From IMG/VR virus record IMGVR_UViG_2534681674_000010: a DNA stretch of 25,404 nt; one strand, 5' to 3'. This document shows positions 1-11,707 of this stretch, piece after piece; the stretch's first letter is position 1, and each line of letters opens with the position of its first letter. Both the position numbers and the translations under genes were made by a program. The notes beneath the pieces are model-generated. The model worked only from the letters and a program-made list of their open reading frames with translations, ran no database searches and was not told the DNA's origin. The stretch comes from a virus. Lineage: Duplodnaviria; Heunggongvirae; Uroviricota; Caudoviricetes.

Positions 1-149
1 GTTGCGTTTGCCAGCTCCAGCTCTCTGGCTTTTTTATCGCGCTGCGCTTTGTAGGTGATGGCGTTATCACGGTAATGATTCAGCCCCAGACTAAGCGCAC
101 CACAGGCCACCAGCAGGGCAATGATGACCACACACAGTACGCGGTTCAT
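1..149 (-). CDS. Rz: Rz-like spanin, N-terminal 49 codons; gene continues beyond window start
   Basis: Minus-strand ATG at 149; translation MNRVLCVVIIALLVACGALSLGLNHYRDNAITYKAQRDKKARELELANA closely matches recalled lambda Rz N-terminus. Confidence 0.8.
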   Translation of the reverse strand, partial: MNRVLCVVIIALLVACGALSLGLNHYRDNAITYKAQRDKKARELELANA

Positions 150-447: not shown

Positions 448-982
448 TTATCTGTCGATACCCCAGCACGCCAGCGCGCTCTCCTGGTCACGACGGGATA
501 CCTGACCATAGCAATTATTTGAGCGGATACGGCAGTCTCTGCCTCCGTCCTTAATCCACCAGCGAATCGCTTCACACGCTCCCCTGCGATCGCCTGCATT
601 AATTCGTTTATAAAACGTCGACGGGAAACACTTACCGGGGCCAATGTTATACGGGCAGAATGACGCGATCCCCGCTTTCTGGGGTTCAGTCAGTGGCACT
701 TTGATTGTTTTTCTCCACCCATGCCAGCGCCTTATCACGCTCAATGGCGTTAACCCGGTCGCATTTCCCCTTCGACAGCTTCATGCCAGGAATAACAGGC
801 TTACCATCCACCCGGGTGGCTCCACGGCAGATGGTCCAGATACCCGCACCATCACGGTATGCCGTGGTGTGGTTACCTTCTTTTTCGTCAAGAAACTGGT
901 CGAGAATTTCAGGCGCAGAAGCACCTGCGGCAATCAGCGCCAGAACGGCAGCCGACAGGCCGTATTTGATTTTTGTGTTCAT
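448..982 (-). pseudogene. R: SAR-type endolysin (lysozyme) split over two frames by an apparent 1-nt insertion near 705-706
   Basis: ORF 686..982 gives signal-anchor N-terminus MNTKIKYGLSAAVLALIAAGASAP...WVEKN; ORF 448..744 continues IKVPLTEPQKAGIASFCPYNIGPGK...RDQESALACWGIDR in another frame; 535 nt span is not a multiple of 3. Confidence 0.65.
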
Positions 983-1018
983 GGATATATTAAATATTCA
1001 GCCGCTGTCCCAGGCCCA

Positions 1019-1579
1019 CTAAATACGCACTTTCAGATAAGTCAGTCCGGGATGAAGCCAGTAAGCCGGCACTTTTTTAAAGGGTGGAGTATTAAAATTA
1101 CGAAGAAGAGCCTCCCGCACAATTGCATCCTTATCAGCACCACTGGCCAGCGCTTCAATCTCAGCGGCTACCTGCAGATACCCCATGCAACGACCAATGC
1201 GCTGCATCAGCCCCTGTTTTTTATTGTTCTTCAGGTAATCAATGGCAAATTCAATGAGCGTCTCACTGTGCTGGTGCGATGGCAGTGTTACTTTTCCATT
1301 TTCTGATATGGTGATTTTCCCGTCATCACCGGATACAACAAAGGATGGCCGGTTACACTCCCATTCCAGCTCACTGCAATTATCATTATGAATACTGAAA
1401 CACTCTGCGAGATTTCTGCTCATCACTTTCCGACAATAATCGTCAAACGCAGCAAACTGCTCATCGCGGCGTTTTTTTTCATCTTCAGAAGGCATCAGCG
1501 CCGACAGTTTTTTATTCAGTTCAGCAATTTCATTTTCCAGACGACTGAAGCGCTGATTCATTTCTTCATGGTTCATCAC
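1019..1579 (-). CDS. hypothetical 186-aa protein between holin and endolysin (coiled-coil N-terminus, Cys-containing, no TM segment)
   Basis: Intact ORF; ATG directly abuts holin stop (1580-1582); no recognisable family. Confidence 0.6.
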   Translation of the reverse strand: MMNHEEMNQRFSRLENEIAELNKKLSALMPSEDEKKRRDEQFAAFDDYCRKVMSRNLAECFSIHNDNCSELEWECNRPSFVVSGDDGKITISENGKVTLPSHQHSETLIEFAIDYLKNNKKQGLMQRIGRCMGYLQVAAEIEALASGADKDAIVREALLRNFNTPPFKKVPAYWLHPGLTYLKVRI

Positions 1580-1796
1580 CTACTCTCCCCGTGCCGCCTT
1601 ACGCCGGTCTTCTTTAATCTTGAAATACAGGTTCGTCAGGTACGTCAGCAGACCAAACAGCAGACTCCCCAGCACGCCTATTGCCGCCCACTGAGACGGG
1701 GAAACCCCTGTCCAGCAACTGCAGGAACCAGTAGCCCGTTCCCACCGCTGACGTGGTGTATGACACACCTGTTGTGATTTTTTCCATCTGGTACAT
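1580..1796 (-). pseudogene. S: class II pinholin (phage 21 S21-like) with apparent +1 frameshift in a G4 run (plus 1705-1708)
   Basis: ORF 1614..1796 N-terminus [29 protein letters not shown] then out of frame; ORF 1580..1825 C-terminus [41 protein letters not shown] matches recalled S21; removing one G restores a ~72-aa holin. Confidence 0.65.
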
Positions 1797-2499: not shown

Positions 2500-4446
2500 T
2501 CATGCCGCAGTGTCTGTGCTGTTCACTTCCACCGCAATGCTGTCTATCAGTACCGGGTAAGTCGCACCTCTGGTAATGTCTGTCACATGCAGTTTATCCG
2601 CCGCAAAGGCACTGACCGGTGACTGCGTCAGCGTGAACGGTGTGCCATCCTGACCATCAATAACCGGCGTCACCTGCAGGCTGTTATTCCCGGCAAAGCG
2701 GAAAGCCAGCGTATGCCATTCGTTATCAAATGCGCCAAAGGTTCCCAGTTTCAGGTTGTTTGTCGCCACTTTCGCATTGTGGTACATCACATTCAGGTCT
2801 TTTGCATCTGTCTGGATGTAGAACGCTGCCAGCAGGTTATTCCCCCCATCTCCGGTCAGGGCAACGCCCTGTGGCAGTGAAGATACCGGCCAGTAAAACG
2901 CCATAACATACTGGTTCGCAGCCAGCGCTCCCGAAACCTTAAAGCGGCAGCGAATCTGCCCCCCTTTCTGTAACAGAGCCGCACCGTTGCCCGCGGCGTA
3001 CTCCAGCACCCAGCTGCTTTTACCGGCTTCCTTGGTCAGCTTCACTGCCTTACCTCCGGTTCCCTCCGCATCGCTGACCACTTCTGCCCTGCCGCCACTG
3101 GCTGACCATCCCTGTACTTTCAGGCTTCCCTCTGACTCGCTGGCAAGGTAAGAGAGCAGTGTTGTGACGCCTGTGGCTTCTGCACCGGAAGGCGATGACG
3201 GGCGCACCTCTGATACTGTCGATGATGCCCCCGCGTTTAGCGCCACTCCTCCCGCATGGCGCAAAATCGCCGTTGCCAGACGGTCGGAAATAATCCCGCG
3301 GCGAGCCCATGAACTGAAATGGCTCGCCCTGTCCTGTGACGTCCAGGTGGCTGAGCTGTCACGCCATTTCGAACCGTAATATCCGATACCCGGAATGTCC
3401 GGGTCTTCTTCCGGTTTGTTCGTCGGCACATTCACCCCGTTCTCATCCGTCATGAACGGTACGAAATGGATATTCTTTTCCGTTTTGTTTTTGTAGCTGC
3501 CGTACACCGTCTGGTACGTGGATTCGTTCTTCTGCTTCCAGAAATACGTCGTATCTCCACATATCCAGGGAACACCGCCAGCAGAGCCACCGACGCACTG
3601 ACCTGCCATATCCGCCAGGTCTGCACGGAATTTATCAACCAGCGCACCAAACTGTGCTGCGTGATTTACCGGCGTACCGCCAAAATCAAATTCCCCCTGC
3701 ATCCACACCACGGCAAGCAGCACATTTTTCGGGTTCTTCTTCAGTGCTGCTTTTGTTCGACCGATAAGGTGCTTATACAGCGGCTTGTCCACACCCCAGC
3801 GGGTTGAATTCTCCGAGGCACCACTCGCGTCACTGTATGTGCCATCGGCTCCGGTGGTGAACGCTGAACCACCACGACAGCACGGAACCAGCAGAATGCC
3901 CGCATTCGCCGGTATAAACGGCAGCAGTTTTTTGGCGATATGCAGCCCTTGCCCCACGGTTCCGTACTGCCCCTTTGACAGGTCCGCTTTCGGATGGTTA
4001 AGGCGGCTCATGTCCTGCACATCATGCAGACAATGGTCCGCCGGAATGATGTCGTTATATTTGCATGCTGCACCGCCCGGTGTCACCGTACTGCGGCGCG
4101 CCAGCTGCTTAATACGCGGGTCCGGACGGTCATATGTCTCCGGCAGCGGAAGGCCTTCACCATATGCCATGCTGTTTGACTGCCCCGCCAGAACCACAAC
4201 AAAGTAATACTCCGGGTCTCTGGTGGCGCTGATTACTGCACCTTCTCCACCTGTCGGCTTCACCACAACAGGTGTGCTCACATCACCTTCTGCGACAATC
4301 GCCTGAATAAGTGCTGCGCCATCATCCGTATACGAAGAAAACGGCCCACCATATGGTTGCCATCCTTCACGAATTTTTTGCGCAAGTGCATCAGCAAGGT
4401 CTGACGGCGACGCCGCCCTGACAACATCATAATGTTTAAATGTCAT
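2500..4446 (-). CDS. nanS-p: NanS-p-like prophage sialate O-acetylesterase (648 aa)
   Basis: Intact ORF; N-terminus MTFKHYDVVRAASPSDLADALAQKIREGW and size match recalled EHEC prophage NanS-p/Z1466-type esterases; position between Q region and lysis genes as in Stx phages. Confidence 0.75.
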   Translation of the reverse strand: MTFKHYDVVRAASPSDLADALAQKIREGWQPYGGPFSSYTDDGAALIQAIVAEGDVSTPVVVKPTGGEGAVISATRDPEYYFVVVLAGQSNSMAYGEGLPLPETYDRPDPRIKQLARRSTVTPGGAACKYNDIIPADHCLHDVQDMSRLNHPKADLSKGQYGTVGQGLHIAKKLLPFIPANAGILLVPCCRGGSAFTTGADGTYSDASGASENSTRWGVDKPLYKHLIGRTKAALKKNPKNVLLAVVWMQGEFDFGGTPVNHAAQFGALVDKFRADLADMAGQCVGGSAGGVPWICGDTTYFWKQKNESTYQTVYGSYKNKTEKNIHFVPFMTDENGVNVPTNKPEEDPDIPGIGYYGSKWRDSSATWTSQDRASHFSSWARRGIISDRLATAILRHAGGVALNAGASSTVSEVRPSSPSGAEATGVTTLLSYLASESEGSLKVQGWSASGGRAEVVSDAEGTGGKAVKLTKEAGKSSWVLEYAAGNGAALLQKGGQIRCRFKVSGALAANQYVMAFYWPVSSLPQGVALTGDGGNNLLAAFYIQTDAKDLNVMYHNAKVATNNLKLGTFGAFDNEWHTLAFRFAGNNSLQVTPVIDGQDGTPFTLTQSPVSAFAADKLHVTDITRGATYPVLIDSIAVEVNSTDTAA

Positions 4447-4534: not shown

Positions 4535-4630
4535 AAGAAATGAAAAAAGGCCACGCAGTTGCGCAGCCTGATAAACCCTGGTTAAAATCCACACGATAAC
4601 AACACAACAATATCAGTATCTCATGCTATT

Positions 4631-4657
4631 GCCCGAACCCATTCGGGCATTTTTTTA
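4631..4657 (+). terminator. intrinsic terminator (plus orientation)
   Basis: GCCCGAA-ccc-a-TTCGGGC followed by TTTTTTT. Confidence 0.45.
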
Positions 4658-4662
4658 CCCAT

Positions 4663-4686
4663 AAAAAAGCCCCTCCGGAGAGGGGC
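4663..4686 (-). terminator. intrinsic terminator (minus orientation), back-to-back with the previous one
   Basis: GCCCCTC-cgga-GAGGGGC; on minus strand followed by TTTTTTAT. Confidence 0.5.
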
Positions 4687-4924
4687 ATGTTTGCATGCAC
4701 ATTCTTTTTCTTGCATGGTGCCGGGTGCCTCCCGGTGAATTCAGTACCAGCACCTGAATCCGCGATTACCCCATATACCTGGTTGCTGATTGCCCCTCCG
4801 CACAGGGGGATTCACCATGCCAGTTTCTTTTAACAAACTCCCCGCAAACCAGACAACAGTCAACCGCCTGAATTGTGAGACATTTAAAAAAAGGCCCGCA
4901 AAAGCGAGCCAGGGAAAATAAGTG

Positions 4925-5000
4925 TGGCGCGTTGTACTGGATTCGAACCAGCGACCTGGCGACTATGCGTCGCTCGCTCTCACCACTGAGCTAAAGGGCC
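4925..5000 (-). tRNA. tRNA-like gene, CAU anticodon (Ile2/Met-like), probably degenerate
   Basis: Minus strand GGCCCTTTAGCTCAGTGGTGAGAGC...GCTGGTTCGAATCCAGT...GCGCCA; D, anticodon and T arms fold, T-loop TTCGAAT, 5' half resembles recalled tRNA-Ile2; 3' acceptor strand ACAACGC cannot pair with 5' GGCCCTT and position 33 is G. Confidence 0.5.
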
Positions 5001-10488: not shown

Positions 10489-10644
10489 TTACTCCTCAGG
10501 TTCGTAAGCTGTGAAGACAGCGACCTCCGTCTGGCCGGTTCGGATTCGTACCTCGCAGAGGTCTTTCCTCGTTACCAGTGCCGTCACTATGACGGTTAAA
10601 CAGATGACAATCAGGGCGATTAACATCGCCTTTTGCTGCTTCAT
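10489..10644 (-). CDS. hok: Hok/Gef-family type I toxin
   Basis: MKQQKAMLIALIVICLTVIVTALVTRKDLCEVRIRTGQTEVAVFTAYEPEE matches recalled HokD/RelF; AAGGAG RBS; GC hairpin GGCGAGGGA-tttc-TCCCTCGCC in 3' UTR (10459-10480). Confidence 0.85.
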   Translation of the reverse strand: MKQQKAMLIALIVICLTVIVTALVTRKDLCEVRIRTGQTEVAVFTAYEPEE

Positions 10645-10878
10645 AGCCTGCTTCTCCTTGCCTTTCGGCACGTAAGAGGCTAACCTACATGTGCAAAGCA
10701 TGAAATTGGCCTCAGATTAATGTTAAGCGTCCTGCAAGACGCGTAATGTTAACTGGGGCTTTTCTCTGTCTGCCTTACGGCGGCATGCCCGAGGCAGACA
10801 GCCTCAAGCACCCGCAGCAATTCTACTTAACTCTTCTTTCCCCGCAAATCATTTTATCCCCGATGGTAATGTTCTCCC

Positions 10879-11464: not shown

Positions 11465-11624
11465 AACGACACCCTAGGGTGGTTTCTAAACTATCACCAC
11501 CGTCAGGTCTCAATCGTCGGGTGGTGAGACGTACAGGGTTGAGACTACCGGGAAACCAACCGGCGAGCTTTTCAGCTCCCCTATACGCCCCACCATAATT
11601 CAGATGTGCGCGTGCATACGACAA

Positions 11625-11707
11625 TAAAAAACACGCTCGCGGCGTGTGTCTGTCGCGGTTTCTATCCGGGGTCTCAATCCCGACGGTCAACTCGACCGTG
11701 AGGTGAA
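11625..11707 (-). ncRNA. candidate small RNA (~80 nt) with its own promoter and terminator
   Basis: Minus strand TTGACG-18nt-TATATT (plus 11712-11741), then CGGUCGAGUUGACCG hairpin, then terminator ACACGC-cgcga-GCGTGT + TTTTTTATT; region 11465-11811 has no convincing ORF. Confidence 0.3.

Follow-up and report, generated by a model that had tools for sequence, protein, structure and literature searches.

In the Qin prophage of Escherichia coli K-12 the lysis genes follow each other as essQ-ydfR-rrrQ-rzpQ, with ydfR between the holin gene (S) and the endolysin gene (R). YdfR came out of two-hybrid screens as a partner of RNase E and RNase G, co-purified with residues 1-598 of RNase E (the N-terminal catalytic half) and pulled down DNase-resistant nucleic acid, that is, RNA; the interaction with RNase E maps to YdfR residues 1-72 (PMC13232886). 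In the phages 933W and VT2-Sakai, S directly adjoins R. Here we describe the open reading frame (ORF) that occupies this slot in IMG/VR virus record IMGVR_UViG_2534681674_000010, a stretch of 25,404 nucleotides (the window) that holds a lambda-like prophage without stx, whose late genes all lie on the minus strand.

Overall, we read the ORF, with a probability of about 0.6, as a genuine and dispensable accessory gene of the Q-dependent late operon, a short-form member of the family PHROG 1085, for which a cytoplasmic role related to that of YdfR is guessed. Very probably it is a genuine, dispensable late-operon gene and not a core component of the lysis machinery. The ORF sits inside the operon that governs toxin release and cell lysis and carries a conserved domain without recognisable fold or function. 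What stands out is that this structurally novel domain is widespread and enriched in Shiga-toxin-producing E. coli (STEC), with an RNase E lead on its partner domain YdfR only.

The gene in the holin-endolysin slot

The features that define the gene are as follows.

1019-1576, minus strand: accessory gene, 185 aa (186 aa if GTG 1579 is used); based on the list of open reading frames, identity to WP_001015158.1, PHROG 1085, alignments, ratios of nonsynonymous to synonymous substitutions (dN/dS) and the AlphaFold2 model
1583-1588, minus strand: Shine-Dalgarno sequence GGAGAG within the last holin codons, 6 nt upstream of the ORF's ATG; based on sequence and the junction alignment
983-1018, minus strand: spacer of 36 nt from the ORF stop to the endolysin gene, with no recognisable Shine-Dalgarno sequence; based on sequence and alignments

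The list of open reading frames gives the ORF as intact at 1019-1579 on the minus strand, with 186 aa counted from a GTG. On this strand the holin stop TAG (1582-1580) is followed by the GTG (1579-1577), an ATG (1576-1574), the ORF stop (1021-1019), the spacer and the endolysin ATG at 982. ATG 1576 is the likely start, giving 185 aa, because GGAGAG at 1588-1583 is spaced 6 nt from it and just 3 nt from the GTG, and because relatives in RefSeq are annotated with the 185-aa ATG form. A preliminary description of this DNA had reported an intact ORF of 186 aa, beginning on the base after the holin stop and ending 36 nt before the endolysin gene, between a pinholin and a signal-anchor-release (SAR) endolysin. 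Intactness, coordinates, both junctions and the slot were borne out. The strand, which it left unstated, is minus, the length has to be shortened by one residue if the ATG is used, and neither of the flanking genes is intact here, since each carries a 1-nt insertion (at 1705 in the holin gene and at 705 in the endolysin gene).

The product is predicted to be a soluble cytoplasmic protein of approximately 21 kDa. Its highest 19-residue Kyte-Doolittle mean is 0.76, so that no membrane segment is indicated, in agreement with the non-membrane protein described before. Residues 1-60 form an acidic helical hairpin (isoelectric point, pI, 5.35), residues 61-75 a disordered acidic linker (pI 4.05) and residues 76-185 a basic alpha/beta C-terminal domain (pI 9.3). 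An AlphaFold2 model built on an alignment of 112 sequences reached a mean predicted local distance difference test score (pLDDT) of 80, the C-terminal domain scoring approximately 90. From E. coli sequences alone the score was 58, too poor for use, and it rose to 80 when Salmonella homologues were added. The modelled N-terminal part consists of helices 3-27 and 31-60 packed as a hairpin, which fits the coiled-coil N-terminus proposed earlier, with disorder at 56-71; the C-terminal domain comprises a three-stranded meander (79-97) and helices 101-117, 123-144, 151-161 and 178-184.

The ORF is a genuine gene, far beyond a chance open reading frame. Its protein is 100% identical to RefSeq WP_001015158.1 ('hypothetical protein'), and the exact protein occurs on at least 999 contigs, where it is named only 'hypothetical protein' or 'Phage protein'. 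Homologous DNA was found in 1131 of 5426 complete E. coli genomes, about one in five. In pairwise Nei-Gojobori comparisons of six copies, dN/dS was 0.23-0.53 for the whole ORF, at dS values up to 1.6, and 0.16-0.28 for residues 76-185, a range that leaves out one pair whose C-terminal domain is identical; the N-terminal part therefore evolves faster than the C-terminal domain. The premise of rarity fails. The exact protein is already in the databases, and as part of a known but unstudied family that often occupies this slot the ORF is less exceptional than at first sight. Two plus-strand open reading frames overlap the region (644-1306 and 1388-1777). Both were judged mechanical, since they span gene boundaries and conservation tracks the minus-strand frame. 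Rfam showed no RNA family within 1019-1579.

An occupied S-R slot appears to be commonplace in E. coli, because K-12 Qin holds ydfR there and ydfR-like DNA is present in 3647 of the 5426 genomes; slot position was confirmed at the inspected loci, and the genome counts reflect DNA matches. Close relatives of the window's holin gene were found in 2435 genomes. Conservation extends over the end of S, including the embedded GGAGAG; the gene that comes next is R in 933W, ydfR in K-12 Qin, a long form of the family in the Stx2a phage Stx2_95 and the short form here. The preliminary description had assumed that S-R-Rz normally runs without interruption. This does not hold for E. coli, in whose prophages the junction of holin and endolysin genes varies and repeatedly takes up cargo. 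The same description would have given way to an insert that is ubiquitous and dispensable in a well-studied phage. This applies by half: the slot occupant ydfR is ubiquitous, but K-12 YdfR shares no domain with the ORF. The exact short-form junction, in which the end of the holin gene is followed by the short-form start, was counted at 407 places in 268 of the 5426 genomes, largely STEC and bovine isolates. Among sequenced Stx phages the C-terminal module is rare, only 20 phage records holding any homologue.

Alignment of the junction with 933W showed that the insertion in ORF-bearing cassettes begins right after the S stop. The G+C content of the ORF is 44-47%, compared with 51-56% in the flanking lysis genes. 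The insert appears to take over the S-embedded Shine-Dalgarno sequence that precedes R in 933W, as slot inserts take over a ribosome-binding site otherwise serving the endolysin. In insert-bearing cassettes R stands behind the 36-nt spacer, conserved in two sequence versions among relatives, without a recognisable Shine-Dalgarno sequence, and the insert may therefore lower or couple translation of R. In a crude consensus scan, nothing resembling a sigma-70 promoter turned up on the minus strand within positions 1-2600, nor did any terminator-like site on either side of the ORF.

The ORF resembles lambdoid morons (lambda bor and lom; stx in the Q-S interval) in its patchy presence among collinear phages, its differing composition and its insertion at a gene boundary. 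Classical morons, in contrast, have a promoter and a terminator of their own and are expressed in the prophage, and neither site was found for the ORF. It appears to depend on late transcription, as stx does, and behaves as late-operon cargo and not as a classical self-transcribed moron. The earlier suggestion of cargo that rides the late transcript is thereby well matched, given the patchy presence, a G+C content of about 45% against 52-56%, the lack of a promoter or terminator of its own in the scan and the takeover of the S-embedded ribosome-binding site.

Family membership and domain modules

The preliminary description recognised no family. The profile hidden Markov model (HMM) search that it had suggested gave a match to a known but unstudied one, PHROG 1085 ('unknown function'), with E = 2e-111. 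Residues 2-186 align with positions 117-296 of the 296-position profile, and only this part is covered because the long homologues carry DUF1327 in front. Many E. coli proteins of 287-296 aa have DUF1327 (PF07041, 'YdfR family') fused ahead of a sequence 81-91% identical to the ORF. These alignments show the family to be modular, with DUF1327 as module A, the coiled-coil hairpin as module B and a basic alpha/beta domain of approximately 110 aa without known relatives as module C. The following forms were found.

A alone: K-12 YdfR, 103 aa
A-B: approximately 181 aa
A-B-C: 287-296 aa; 329 aa in phage Stx2_95
B-C: the present ORF
B-X-C: 209-217 aa, with an insert

The long forms (287-296 aa, and up to 329 aa in Stx2_95, BCI50300.1), which are also covered by PHROG 1085, share with the ORF the slot between class II holin and lysozyme, the S-embedded ribosome-binding site, ORF residues 20-185 (approximate limits) at 81-91% protein identity and every conserved motif of the C-terminal domain. 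They differ in the N-terminal DUF1327 of approximately 100 aa, which the ORF lacks, and in the first approximately 19 codons, which are distinct in DNA, nucleotide similarity beginning at base 57. K-12 Qin YdfR, consisting of DUF1327 only, shares the slot and the upstream Shine-Dalgarno sequence, and its domain is the fusion partner in the long forms. No PF07041 match was found in the ORF at E <= 0.1, alignments likewise show the domain to be absent, and tblastn of K-12 YdfR against the entire window gave nothing. The ORF is accordingly a member of PHROG 1085 that corresponds to the C-terminal module of NCBI's long 'YdfR family' proteins, but it is not a DUF1327/YdfR protein; it is the DUF1327-less short form, which varies the domain architecture of a family so far catalogued but unstudied. 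That it arose by simply truncating the long form was considered and rejected, because the short form has distinct first codons and an N-terminus of its own (MNHEEMNQR...) that is common to diverged variants of 185, 209, 213 and 217 aa, 50-95% identical to each other.

An exhaustive, filter-free HMM search of 1.84 billion representative proteins gave only 41 matches, and when one genome of each species in GTDB was scanned, loci turned up in Escherichia and Shigella only. There is thus no broader family from which a function could be borrowed, and the family is confined to prophages of Escherichia (including Shigella) and Salmonella. Residues kept across both genera are H103, G128-R129, L134-Q135, A137, E139, P164-P165-x-K167, W173, P176-G177 and Y180-L181. 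The corresponding C-terminal motifs (H103; GR.MG.LQ.A.E; PP.K; W..PG..YL) are all present in the ORF and are invariant or nearly so among the members. The protein contains five Cys residues, as the preliminary description had pointed out in calling it Cys-containing. Cys130 is C, S or A in Salmonella and the other Cys positions vary as well, so that this trait carries no functional weight. A Cys/His metal site was rejected on the same grounds, with H101 variable and only H103 conserved.

The distant homologues are 'hypothetical proteins' of Salmonella enterica prophages, 190-340 aa in length (e.g. P0125, P0161), with 25-38% identity in the C-terminal domain. They resemble the ORF in the motifs H-R-D, GR(C/S/A)MG(L/Y)LQVAAEIE, DNPPFK and W..PG..YLK and in the preceding coiled coil. 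They differ in having a diverged DUF1327-like N-terminal domain (A'-B-C) and in their place, which in six contexts was upstream of the holin gene, in the cargo region between the Q antiterminator gene and S, and never between S and R. Often a convergent gene separates homologue and holin. The neighbouring holin is of the phage-21 type (PF04971) in four loci, and in the other two it belongs to PF16080. In five of the six contexts this Q-to-holin interval also holds HicAB or ParE modules, and a faint ArtA-like (Pertussis_S1) toxin match was seen at one locus; loci with the ArtA-like toxin gene or with HicAB or ParE-HTH modules are L012 (2157-3469), L020, L021 and L023. From these contexts the family appears to stay near the lysis genes of the late operon without depending on any single type of holin or on translation coupled to that of S.

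A small convergent ORF follows the family gene in some phages, with 118 aa in a prophage of E. coli AUSMDU00014361 (L015, 2153-2509, minus strand) and 105 aa in Salmonella (L012, 4599-4916, minus strand). The two share 46% identity, and each matches PHROG 1853 ('unknown function'). Family gene and PHROG 1853 ORF may constitute a module of two genes, from which antisense transcription would run into the late operon. The partner is absent from the window.

Annotation of the family is uneven. In E. coli DA33137 an intact 296-aa long-form gene (L017, 1097-1990) is called a partial 'YdfR family protein, missing C-terminus' by the Prokaryotic Genome Annotation Pipeline (PGAP), with the remainder unannotated, and many genomes with ORF-homologous DNA show no annotation under the match. 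This suggests a systematic annotation artefact, by which automated annotation splits or mislabels long forms of the YdfR family. Decaying copies also occur. In Shigella flexneri SFBU1023, E. coli ECMA0423 and E. coli RMDEC465 the conserved W..PG..YLK end has given way to another sequence through a frameshift (variant at L008/L009 4001-4650 and L016 1501-2130), and the copy in strain 08_3418 is annotated as frameshifted (L014, 1504-2020).

Proposed role and rival explanations

Searches for a function gave little. Pfam and NCBIfam showed no significant match to the ORF, only chance-level coiled-coil matches, and the same was true for Pfam with 15 family members. None of the defence families in PADLOC-DB v2 (0 at E <= 1) matched. 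A PDB sequence search, with the single sequence as well as with a profile, gave nothing significant. The structure-prediction search recommended in the preliminary description was run too, and Foldseek with the AlphaFold2 model returned nothing from PDB or BFVD at E <= 0.001. Literature searches gave nothing on the ORF itself; the sole relevant paper was the YdfR-RNase E study (PMC13232886).

We propose that the ORF would be transcribed together with the lysis genes, without a promoter or terminator of its own, and translated from ATG 1576 by means of the Shine-Dalgarno sequence in the last holin codons, a site that serves the endolysin in insert-free phages. As a best guess, its product would act late in infection on a cytoplasmic host target and not on the envelope, and this target might be related to the one bound by the frequent fusion partner YdfR/DUF1327. 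That its role ties in with that of YdfR, through RNA or RNase E, with the basic C-terminal domain as effector or binding part and the coiled coil for assembly, is a tentative proposal, and we would sooner expect it to be wrong than right.

Several points speak against the reading as a whole. DUF1327, the domain reported to contact RNase E, is precisely the part absent from the ORF, and the link between ORF and RNA metabolism is therefore guilt by fusion only. Sequence searches and searches with the predicted fold yielded no functional clue. The absence of promoter and terminator comes from a crude consensus scan, and late expression, like dispensability for lysis, is to be read as probable. 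Constant proximity to a holin gene in two genera could still reflect a lysis-related role. Finally, holin and endolysin genes are frameshifted in the window; if these frameshifts are real, the operon context is already decaying.

Such a lysis-related role could be that of a cytoplasmic timing regulator, whose acidic hairpin or C-terminal domain binds the basic cytoplasmic holin tail or alters endolysin supply and thereby delays or sharpens triggering. Alternatively, the effect could be exerted in cis on translation of R: by capturing its Shine-Dalgarno sequence and leaving it behind the 36-nt spacer, the insert would change the S:R ratio, and a function of the protein would be unneeded. The placement of the ORF directly after S, its use of the S-embedded ribosome-binding site and the lack of a recognisable Shine-Dalgarno sequence for R in insert-bearing cassettes all fit, as does the charge of the partners, an acidic N-terminal part (pI 5.35; linker 4.05) and a basic C-terminal holin tail. 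Small non-enzymatic proteins encoded with lysis genes are known to tune holin or SAR-endolysin behaviour, such as T4 RIII, a soluble cytoplasmic antiholin, and phage Mu releasin, an accessory lysis regulator that is membrane-anchored. The ORF product, in contrast to releasin, has no transmembrane segment, and it shows no sequence or fold similarity to anything in PDB or BFVD. Moreover, near-identical S and R work without the ORF in 933W-type phages, and its dispensability in such sister phages speaks against a dedicated role in timing. Family members always lie within one or two genes of a holin in Escherichia and Salmonella alike, but the Q-to-S interval is a general cargo hotspot, so that closeness to the holin is weak evidence. 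The Salmonella homologue stands upstream of the holin, often with a convergent gene in between, and its neighbours from PF04971 (four loci) and PF16080 (two loci) imply that there is no fixed partner holin. This argues against a regulator specific to the pinholin, and the candidate of a regulator specific to phage-21-type holins is weakened accordingly. Taken together, we regard a timing function, through the protein or in cis, as unlikely. The ORF could instead be a conflict gene of lysogen or phage, acting in superinfection exclusion, abortive-infection defence or counter-defence. Its patchy distribution and lower G+C content, the strongly modular architecture (A, A-B, A-B-C, B-C, B-X-C), the faster evolution of the N-terminal part, the company of HicAB and ParE modules and an ArtA-like toxin gene in Salmonella and the conserved convergent PHROG 1853 partner in some E. 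coli and Salmonella phages would all suit such cargo. However, no PADLOC model matched, the partner is missing from the window, and without a promoter of its own the late-operon position implies silence in the lysogen, which is wrong for prophage-borne defence and too late for counter-defence; we consider this decidedly unlikely.

The least credible of these explanations, and a highly improbable one, takes the ORF for a non-functional remnant: a long YdfR-family gene, now drifting after loss of its DUF1327 part. Decayed copies do occur occasionally (08_3418; SFBU1023, ECMA0423 and RMDEC465 with the C-terminal frameshift), and the neighbouring S, R and integrase (int) genes are frameshifted in the window. 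Yet dN/dS is well under 1, the ORF of the window is identical to intact copies, the MNHEEMNQR... N-terminus right after the S stop is conserved across variants, and a junction found at 407 places in 268 complete genomes is hardly that of a drifting relic. Going beyond the preferred reading of a late-operon accessory gene, the shuffled DUF1327, coiled-coil and C-terminal modules might together form a phage-encoded system directed, late in infection, at the decay of host RNA. In it DUF1327 would bind RNase E at its catalytic half, assembly would fall to the coiled coil, including mixed assembly among products of several co-resident STEC prophages, the basic C-terminal domain would serve as effector or bind RNA, and the stand-alone B-C form would work in trans with DUF1327-coil proteins of other prophages. 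That all these components hold jointly is very doubtful. If true, control of late mRNA stability (stx and lysis transcripts) would be coupled to the lysis cassette. Most strains with the exact S-ORF junction are Shiga-toxin-producing or cattle-associated ones. Should the family influence the timing of lysis or the stability of late mRNA, this would bear on Stx release and phage yield in enterohaemorrhagic E. coli.

Lysis genes and other features of the window

On the minus strand the late genes follow each other in the order Q antiterminator, DNA methyltransferase, tRNA-like gene, NanS-p-type esterase (648 aa, 2500-4446, minus strand), DUF1378, DUF826, holin, ORF, endolysin and Rz. The lysis genes around the ORF are the following.

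1580-1796, minus strand: class II phage-21-type holin, a predicted pinholin with dual start M1/M4, broken by an extra C at 1705; two partial open reading frames, PF04971 with E = 2.5e-20 on the C-terminal part
448-982, minus strand: T4-lysozyme-type endolysin with a Gly/Ala-rich, signal-anchor-release-like N-terminal segment (predicted SAR endolysin), broken by an extra T at 705; two partial open reading frames, PF00959 on both halves
1-149, minus strand: 5' part of an Rz-type 'lysis protein' (spanin) gene, continuing past the left end of the window; annotation transferred from collinear relatives by alignment

The closest relatives, 99.9% identical over 21 kb, are prophages beside ompW in O103:H2 FWSEC0007 and O157:H7 F6294. 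They carry an identical ORF, and only four indels, each of 1 nt, separate the window from these prophages.

705: extra T, splits the endolysin gene
1705: extra C, splits the holin gene
2408: missing A, intergenic
21029: missing C, truncates the integrase gene

In the holin gene the extra C sits in a run of C and puts the first 30 codons and the last 41 out of frame with each other. It was found in none of 3669 places in 2293 genomes that match the holin segment (best identity 98.8%). The extra T of the endolysin gene was found in none of the matches listed, the best of which had 98.8% identity, while the identity summary counts one further record with at least 99%. The frameshifts in holin, endolysin and integrase genes are thus apparently private to the source of the window, and they would therefore reflect either a very recent inactivation of excision and lysis or an error of sequencing or assembly. 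The insertions at 705 and 1705 are exactly 1000 nt apart.

Between endolysin and Rz genes lies a non-coding gap of approximately 300 nt (150-447), in which the late operon's coding strand carries a 15-pair hairpin (357-325, minus strand) and then GTGTTTCCTG. Phage 933W has an ant gene at this place. Between the methyltransferase and nanS-p genes, Rfam matched the anti-GcvB small RNA AgvB (4594-4655, plus strand) and the small RNA STnc100 (4657-4849, minus strand). A tRNA was not called anywhere in the window by ARAGORN; Rfam gave a weak tRNA match of 33.9 bits at 4935-4994 (minus strand), where relatives are annotated with tRNA-Met. In the early region of the prophage, Rfam matched sok (beside hokD), C4 antisense RNA, isrK and DicF, at 10639-10813 (minus strand), 11517-11699 (minus strand) and 16628-16679 (plus strand).

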